Shown here: positions 23,343-24,582 of the stretch, one piece after another
Layout: every line of letters begins with the position of its first letter
Numbering within the stretch: position 1 is the stretch's first letter
Made by a program: the position numbers and the translations under genes
The notes under the pieces: generated by a model
What the model was told of the DNA's origin: nothing
The model's input: the letters and a program-made list of their open reading frames with translations, nothing else
Databases searched by the model: none
Source of the DNA: Enterobacteria phage Kha5h
Sequence record: NC_054905.1
Direction: 5' to 3' (one strand)
DNA: 64,000 nt

Positions 23343-23816
23343 TTATTTGAATGATTTGACGTACTGAATAGAACCTTTACTATTCACGAAAGCGATTTTA
23401 CCATTTTTATTATACATGGTAGCAGTACGCTGATAGCCATAAGTTTGTTTACCAGATTGATAACCAACTAATGCGAAATTATCTTCACCCATTTTATTCT
23501 GTTTAGCGCGAATACGTTCATGACCGTGTGCCATAAGAACCTTAGCATCACCAGTTGAAATTGATCTACGAGTTTTTTCATCTTCAACTGTATTAACAAA
23601 GTCGTCAAATGAATCAAATTTAGCATGGGATTTATTATACAGTTTTCCATCTACTGCATAATTATATCCCTGTACATCCATCTCAACTTCTGTACCATCA
23701 TCCAATACAGCAGTGATTTTTTGACCTTTTTTAAATTTCAAAAGATCAGTAAAAGATTCAGCAATAATTTGAGAATTAATAGCTGCTTCAGTGATAAATT
23801 CTTGATATGTTTTCAT
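23343..23816 (-). CDS. candidate packaged internal protein with capsid-targeting-like N-terminus
   Basis: N-terminus MKTYQEFITE-AAINSQIIAE matches the T4 internal-protein CTS (MKTYQEF, L/I-x-x-E protease sites). Confidence 0.6.
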   Translation of the reverse strand: MKTYQEFITEAAINSQIIAESFTDLLKFKKGQKITAVLDDGTEVEMDVQGYNYAVDGKLYNKSHAKFDSFDDFVNTVEDEKTRRSISTGDAKVLMAHGHERIRAKQNKMGEDNFALVGYQSGKQTYGYQRTATMYNKNGKIAFVNSKGSIQYVKSFK

Positions 23817-23825
23817 ATGTTTCCT

Positions 23826-24242
23826 TTAAATGTAAATATTTTTGCCGTAATACTTGTACCAGTGTGGCTTCATTAAAATTTTTTCATCGAGTCGTTGTTG
23901 ACTCAATTTAATAGCTGATTTGCATGGATTATAATCATTTTTCCATTCTGCTGGAATATCGCTGATGTCAGGAACTTCAGTATCTTTTATACTAAACCCA
24001 CGTTTTAAGCATTCCGTTATAATGTCTGATTGACGCTTTCGCAAAAATTCTAACTTATCGTAAAAGAACGTAACATGACCAGAGCCTAAAATAAACTCGG
24101 AAGATATTTTAAAATCTTTAACCCGCTTACCATTTGCCACATGTTTACGAACTATACCAAAAACACGCGGCAATTCACGATACTCAGCCATAAGATGTTG
24201 GTCGGTCAGTTCAGAAACAAGTGTTAAATTGATACGAGTCAT
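23826..24242 (-). CDS. denV: pyrimidine-dimer DNA glycosylase (endonuclease V)
   Basis: 138 aa from ATG 24240-24242 behind GGAGGA SD; [12 protein letters not shown]... matches T4 EndoV as recalled. Confidence 0.9.
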
Positions 24243-24269
24243 AATTTCCTCCAAGTAGTTGATGAATGT

Positions 24270-24299
24270 ATAGTATCAAAGTCCTTGGAGGAAGTAAAC
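24270..24299 (-). promoter_or_regulatory. T4-type early promoter upstream of denV
   Basis: GTTTAC-N18-TGATACTAT. Confidence 0.55.
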
Positions 24300-24300
24300 A

Positions 24301-24582
24301 CTATTTTTCTGAAGCGCCTGAAATATATTTTTCAAGACGTTGTTTCATTAGCGAGCCGTTCTTAGCGATTTCTTCTGGTTTATCGCACATACGCAACAAG
24401 GCTTCAAGCTTAACGATATCGCTGGTACGTTCAAATTTGCGAGTATCTATCTTACTAGCAAGTTCAGAAATACGTGCTAATAGACTTTCAGCTTCAACCA
24501 AAGCTGCACCTAGCTTAGTTGCAAATGTGTCAGTAGCTTCGTTAAGAATAGATTCTGATAAAAATTCACTATATGTTTTCAT
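24301..24582 (-). CDS. candidate packaged internal protein with capsid-targeting-like N-terminus
   Basis: ATG 24580-24582 overlaps the e stop (ATGA); N-terminus [15 protein letters not shown]. Confidence 0.55.

Follow-up and report, generated by a model that had tools for sequence, protein, structure and literature searches.

Ip4 and an Ip5-like protein beside denV: probable injected internal proteins of a Tequatrovirus

What are the two short genes that flank denV, the gene for endonuclease V, in a T4-like phage, and what would their products do? We asked this of a 64-kb stretch of DNA from Enterobacteria phage Kha5h (NC_054905.1, 64,000 nucleotides; hereafter the window). Here one open reading frame (ORF), ORF157 (23343..23816, minus strand, 157 amino acids), lies between denV and a homolog of vs.8, and another, ORF93 (24301..24582, minus strand, 93 amino acids), lies between the lysozyme gene e and denV. 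The initial annotation had taken both for T4-type internal proteins (IPs) because both were said to begin with MKTY(Q/S)EF, and the translations do begin in this way. We read the two products as T-even internal proteins that would be packaged into the head, processed by the prohead protease gp21, and injected to disarm a host defense, the likeliest being a variant of type IV restriction, and we put the probability of this reading at roughly 0.85. Its internal-protein part, supported by the signal residues, the locus, the presence of gp21 and gp22, and database annotation, appears highly probable.

Identity of the two genes

The ORF157 protein begins MKTYQEFITEAAINSQIIAES; its ATG lies 9 nucleotides past the denV stop, with a ribosome site (AAGGAAAC) in front. 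It matched Pfam family DUF7412 (PF24183) over its full length (E = 1.3e-95; 318 bits against a curated cut-off of 27; residues 1-157 on a profile of 158 positions) and PHROG 3155, labeled "internal virion protein" (E = 1e-101). The T2 copy is 99.4% identical and the K3 copy, of the same length, 98% identical. The best structural match in BFVD was UniProt Q38388, "Ip4 [Enterobacteria phage K3]", and relatives carry the gene name Ip4 in ime09, ipIV in PP01, and the label "similar to phage T2 Ip4" in Sf21. By these matches ORF157 is the Ip4 internal protein of T-even phages, and it is already annotated as such; compared with Ip4 of T2 and K3 (Q38388), it is the same protein and likewise adjoins vs.8, and nothing of substance differs.

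Ip4 is present in 469 phage records, with copies in Klebsiella and Salmonella T4-like phages at ~67-71% identity and a relative in Serratia phage SP1 at 60%. When the Ip4-family profile was run against 1.84 billion representative proteins, it returned seven matches, all of them phage-like proteins or fragments, and no bacterial or enzymatic relative was found in that search.

The start of ORF93 and the end of e overlap in an ATGA (ATG at 24582-24580, TGA stop at 24581-24579), which confirms the overlap that had been proposed from the sequence, and translational coupling of ORF93 to e is possible. ORF93 matched PHROG 3499, "internal head protein" (RB69ORF127c), at E = 1.2e-46 (residues 1-87 on a profile of 85 positions), and no Pfam family matched it. 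Intact copies, 89-100% identical, occur in 237 phage records, many of them from Mosigvirus. The annotated ip5 products of T2, PP01, and wV7 are 48-51% identical to ORF93, belong to the same length class, and have a cleavage site at residue 15 in common with it. The location of the two differs: ORF93 lies between e and denV, whereas ip5, as in PP01, occupies the second IP locus (57B-trna.4), where ipI is found in T4. In the records closest to the window, the RefSeq labels are "internal head protein" for ORF93 and "internal virion protein" for ORF157, and ime09 names its 157-residue gene Ip4 and notes its 93-residue gene as RB69ORF127c.

A short ORF with no Pfam family and a poorly resolved structural model (predicted template-modeling score, pTM, 0.35) could be spurious, an accident of the spacer between e and denV. 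We regard this as close to negligible for ORF93, since the frame stays intact across the 237 records, a paralog of similar length and ~50% identity (Ip5) exists in the other IP locus, the PHROG 3499 match reaches E = 1e-46, and its translation might be coupled to that of e through the ATGA. By its family match and conservation, ORF93 is a real gene for an Ip5-like internal head protein.

Targeting sequence and cleavage sites

According to the account in PMC9026906, mutagenesis of T4 IPIII (Mullaney & Black 1996) identified residues 4 and 7 as the main targeting determinants and residues 8 and 10 as those that matter for processing, and the first 10 IPIII residues alone were enough to package foreign proteins. 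ORF157 and ORF93 both carry Y4, F7, I/L8, and E10 within their MKTY(Q/S)EF starts, and the N-terminus of Ip4 (MKTYQEFITE) is that of T4 IPII and IPIII (MKTYQEFIAE) with one residue changed. Among ORFs of at least 40 residues in the whole window, only three begin with MKT[YF], the third being IPI, and the two proteins match internal-protein families at E values of 1e-47 to 1e-102; the shared start is therefore not a matter of chance.

The protease gp21 cuts after L/I-x-E, for example at ITE-6 and LTE-619 in Alt (PMC5694885). The initial annotation had pointed to L/I-x-x-E sites behind the common start; cleavage motifs are indeed present there, but the motif itself is one residue shorter. At residues 8-10 it reads ITE in ORF157 and LSE in ORF93. 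ORF157 has one more L/I-x-E site, IAE at residues 18-20, and ORF93 has three more, at 13-15, 28-30, and 38-40.

Across 13 aligned Ip4-family proteins (60-99% identity), F7, E10, and E20 do not vary, Y or F stands at residue 4, and I, L, or M is always found at the P3 residues (positions 8 and 18); variation is greatest at residues 11-17, and the sequence is highly conserved from residue 26 onward. Ip4 is thus predicted to have two cleavage sites and a propeptide of residues 1-10 or 1-20, leaving a mature protein of ~137-147 residues, since a propeptide of either length fits an invariant E10 and E20 that enclose a variable stretch at 11-17. Among members of the ORF93/Ip5 family, P0018 (LTV) and PP01 Ip5 (ATE) have lost the E10 site, while residue 15 still closes an LNE or ITE site, so a cut after E15 is the best prediction for ORF93; its propeptide most likely comprises residues 1-15 and its mature part ~78 residues. 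These predicted sites define the mature forms of Ip4 and ORF93 for expression.

The shared start could have another origin. A 50-nucleotide block (23794..23843, minus strand), made up of the ribosome site plus 23 nucleotides from the start of the coding region for the targeting sequence, is identical to the upstream-plus-5′ block of T4 ipII; it also covers the final codons of denV, whose product ends in GKNIYI here and in GKAIYA in T4. By this identity, the 5′ end of Ip4 is held in common with ipII through recombination and not through independent selection, and the MKTY..EF start might be a mere recombination scar on one or both proteins, which would act, unpackaged, in the producing cell. 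We consider this very unlikely. The context of ORF93 differs (it overlaps e and has no common upstream block), yet Y4, F7, L8, and E10 are kept. Ip4 relatives at 60-70% identity, as well as three distant relatives (P0020-P0022; E = 1e-16 to 1e-22), retain a targeting-type N-terminus and L-N-E despite the divergence of their DNA. The distant relatives have a start of the form MNF(E/K)(Q/D)FLNE followed by S, or an equivalent motif; the N-termini found among them include MNFEQFLNE and MNFKDFLNE, each with S as the next residue. Such an MNF-type start resembles a variant targeting sequence, perhaps that of more distant T4-like phages. The persistence of the signal alongside the mature domain across so long a divergence speaks for a function and against a scar, and the sufficiency of the first 10 IPIII residues for packaging foreign proteins (PMC9026906) also tells against an accidental start.

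The partners that a targeted internal protein would need are encoded in the same window. The prohead protease gp21, which would be expected to cleave off the propeptides, is encoded at 61676..62314 on the plus strand (Pfam Peptidase_S77, E = 1.5e-111), and gp22, the scaffold core to which the targeting sequence would bind, at 62345..63154 on the same strand (Pfam T4_CASP, E = 3.8e-90). Both belong to a head-morphogenesis block (59408-63154, plus strand) in which portal gp20, gp67, gp21, and gp22 all have Pfam matches and the ORF between gp67 and gp21, without a Pfam match, is gp68 by position. Several TATAAATA late promoters also occur on the plus strand within this block.

Role of the mature proteins

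We propose the following course of events for Ip4 and ORF93. Both would be late products, probably transcribed from two late promoters that precede e, and in the prohead their N-terminal capsid-targeting sequence would bind the scaffolding core, gp22. The gp21 protease would then cut after the conserved L/I/M-x-E, at E10 and/or E20 in Ip4 and most likely at E15 in ORF93, and the mature proteins so released would remain beside the DNA in the head and be injected at the next infection. Once inside, they would most likely neutralize a host defense acting on the incoming DNA with its glucosyl-hydroxymethylcytosine (glucosyl-hmC), and by analogy with T4 Ip1, Ip2, and Ip3 that defense would be a GmrSD type IV restriction variant. 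Packaging, cleavage, injection, and the anti-defense target are what we infer for these two proteins from their likeness to the T4 ones.

Late expression has support from the promoters of the region. Two T4 late-promoter boxes (TATAAATA) lie at 25081..25101 on the minus strand, upstream of e; no others occur from e to vs.8, and the T4 locus has the same two boxes upstream of its e gene. No late-promoter consensus was found directly upstream of Ip4 or ORF93, and the same holds for T4 ipII and ipIII; nor was a terminator-like site found on the minus strand from e to vs.8. Judged from these promoters and from the lack of a terminator-like site, late co-transcription of ORF93 and Ip4 with e is plausible.

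The anti-defense role is suggested by what is known of the T4 proteins. IPI* inhibits GmrSD of E. coli CT596 (Rao & Black 2010, PMC3012670), and T4 Ip1, Ip2, and Ip3 each block a distinct GmrSD type IV restriction enzyme, with no cross-protection between Ip2 and Ip3 (Silas et al. 2025, PMC12373910). The latter authors proposed that every gene of both Ip loci targets GmrSD variants, and the same paper documents injection with the DNA for no IPs other than those of T4 (PMC12373910). The expectation in the initial annotation that a different IP set implies different host defenses agrees with the published view (Rao & Black 2010, PMC3012670; PMC12373910). On this analogy, an anti-defense role is somewhat better than an even bet, and GmrSD as the specific target is a tentative assignment that we would place below even odds.

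T4 IPII and IPIII (Ip2 and Ip3, inhibitors of GmrSD-ECOR21 and GmrSD-ECOR17) have the locus, the targeting sequence, and the late promoters upstream of e in common with Ip4 and ORF93, but their mature domains have no detectable sequence similarity to either. IPI* (Ip1) is likewise of the injected, gp21-processed class, and the window carries a gene whose product is 100% identical to T4 IPI (32380..32667, minus strand) in the second IP locus (57B-ipI-trna.4); it differs from Ip4 and ORF93 in its locus, its longer propeptide of 19 residues, and its unrelated mature domain. The phage thus carries Ip1 of T4 but neither Ip2 nor Ip3.

Beyond residue 10, Ip4 and ORF93 are unrelated to each other and to T4 IPI, IPII, and IPIII (best pairwise BLASTP E = 0.011 in a six-sequence database), and with no significant BLASTP similarity past that residue, the gene downstream of denV is, as had been claimed, a second and unrelated IP gene. 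Mature Ip4 is basic (isoelectric point, pI, ~9.1; 22 K+R against 18 D+E). Its AlphaFold2 model is a mixed alpha/beta structure with a predicted local distance difference test score (pLDDT) of 73.7 and a pTM of 0.67, in which the N-terminal helix is of low confidence; the ORF93 model is all-helical, with three helices, and its low pTM gives low confidence in the tertiary fold. A sequence search of all PDB chains with both proteins returned nothing significant, NCBIfam returned sub-threshold noise only, and the ORF93 model had no match in BFVD with E below 0.6. No sequence or fold similarity of the mature domains to the proven GmrSD inhibitors (Ip1, Ip2, Ip3) was found, and neither domain has a match among known folds. 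With no significant PDB or NCBIfam match, models and sequences are uninformative on biochemical activity.

Several observations weigh against the proposal that both proteins are packaged, processed, injected, and directed at a host defense. No late-promoter consensus stands immediately upstream of Ip4. Mature ORF93 is near neutral (pI ~6.3), unlike the basic T4 IPII and IPIII. A search of the accessible literature found no virion proteomics on the presence or cleavage of Ip4 or ORF93 in virions, and on Ip4, ipIV, DUF7412, and RB69ORF127c it found nothing relevant beyond Silas et al. (2025). In that study, ip4-10 gave no reproducible inhibition of eight active GmrSD systems (PMC12373910), a result to be read with the limit that the correspondence of their ip4 and ip5 to the sequences here is unconfirmed.

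The negative screen bears on two other explanations. One keeps the proteins in the head and gives them a physical role, neutralizing DNA charge or aiding DNA packing or ejection, which is the classical view of basic internal proteins. The basic pI of mature Ip4 suits it, as does solid-state nuclear magnetic resonance of T4, in which internal-protein lysines contact DNA phosphates (PMC3012670), and the failure of ip4-10 to yield a GmrSD target counts in the same direction. Set against these points, mature ORF93 is not basic, IP genes are non-essential and are swapped as cassettes, which suits a host-specific function better than a general structural one, and all three T4 IPs have specific GmrSD targets. 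A purely physical role is therefore improbable in our estimate.

The other explanation retains injection and inhibition and changes the target: Ip4 and/or ORF93 would be injected inhibitors of a non-GmrSD immune system, or of a GmrSD class outside those sampled. This fits both the negative ip4-10 screen and the lack of fold similarity to known inhibitors, and we rate it as possible though rather unlikely. If it is true, the near-identical ORF93 cassette common to Mosigvirus and Tequatrovirus would mark a defense met by both. The three rivals, a purely physical role, a recombination scar, and a spurious ORF93, are all weaker than the explanation in which Ip4 and ORF93 are internal proteins with an anti-defense role.

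The genes, their names, the signal sequence, and the arms-race interpretation are already in the literature and in annotation, and the arrangement is ordinary for this phage group. Its bearing lies in the breadth of the two families. Ip4 (~470 records, including T2 and T4-like phages of Klebsiella, Salmonella, and Serratia) and the ORF93 family (~240 records, two genera) are widespread candidates for injected proteins, and with Ip1, Ip2, and Ip3 now assigned to GmrSD variants, Ip4 and ORF93 are the obvious next candidates in the hunt for targets.

Layout and history of the locus

All genes from nudE to vs.8 lie on the minus strand. Downstream of nudE (25105-25560) comes the lysozyme gene e (24579..25067; Pfam Phage_lysozyme), whose DNA is 92% identical to T4 e, and the order is then e-ORF93-denV-Ip4-vs.8, with denV at 23826..24242 (Pfam Pyr_excise, PHROG 1183; so annotated in ime09 and slur14) and the vs.8 homolog at 22650..23237 (PHROG 1488). 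A 1.9-kb stretch of the locus is 99.6-99.7% identical to the Tequatrovirus phages vB_Eco_EL, slur03, slur08, slur14, and Kelasse, and 98.7% identical to ime09; on these identities, the phage of the window is a Tequatrovirus.

T-even phages have two variable IP loci, e-denV-vs.8 and 57B-trna.4, and the interval from e to vs.8 that holds ORF93 and Ip4 is the locus of T4 ipII and ipIII. T4 reads e-ipIII-ipII-denV-vs.8, so that the statement that ipII and ipIII lie between denV and e holds for T4; both T4 genes are thus between e and denV, whereas here one lies on each side of denV. Sf21-type phages read e-denV-Ip4-vs.8, with Ip4 following denV as in the window, while in T2 Ip4 follows e directly (e-Ip4, without denV). 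In the T2 record (PV958097.1, 2419-3474), no denV is annotated between e and Ip4. A T2 that lacks denV fits the classical ultraviolet sensitivity of that phage. In Mosigvirus p000v the order is e-ORF93-denV, followed by three coding sequences, two of them annotated as internal proteins, and then by the next gene; its ORF93 DNA is 97.9% identical to that in the window and overlaps e in the same way. The suggestion that the window carries a divergent IP repertoire did not hold up, for the complete order e, ORF93, denV, Ip4 recurs in 20 deposited records and each gene occurs in hundreds.

Sliding identity along the locus delimited a recombinant patch of ~500 bp (24168..24667, minus strand) that takes in the last ~90 nucleotides of e, ORF93, a 58-nucleotide spacer, and the first ~75 nucleotides of denV. 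Within the patch, identity to Mosigvirus p000v is 96-100%; in its flanks, identity to p000v is 58-88%, whereas Tequatrovirus Sf21, which is without ORF93, reaches 92-100%. From these identities, ORF93 was exchanged between Tequatrovirus and Mosigvirus through homologous recombination in e and denV.

The spacer that follows Ip4 is the same conserved spacer as follows denV in T4. It is GC-rich and ~95 nucleotides long (23238-23332, minus strand), is 95-98% identical in T4, T2, and p000v, and in p000v is better conserved than the neighboring genes; it may serve as an anchor for recombination or act in regulation. That the spacer might form a structured RNA or be left over from a tRNA was also considered and rejected: it had no Rfam match, no tRNA was found in it, and its predicted fold had no advantage over shuffled sequence (z = -0.18).

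ORF93 and Ip4 are exchangeable accessory cassettes, as expected of arms-race genes, and nothing in the locus goes beyond the cassette behavior of IP genes that two papers (PMC3012670, PMC12373910) credit to Repoila et al. (1994).

Two other features of the window deserve mention. The vs.8 homolog contains a P-loop-like motif (GGRQSGKST) and weakly resembles AAA domains and the N-terminal ATPase of the large terminase (E = 6.5e-6 to PHROG 2); in ime09, vs.8 is annotated from a later start, with a shorter product of 179 residues. At 30007-30837, on the minus strand, lie 10 tRNA genes (Arg, Asn, Tyr, Met, Thr, Ser, Pro, Gly, Leu, and Gln). T4 has eight tRNA genes, and the set in the window appears to differ from it, with Asn, Tyr, and Met present.

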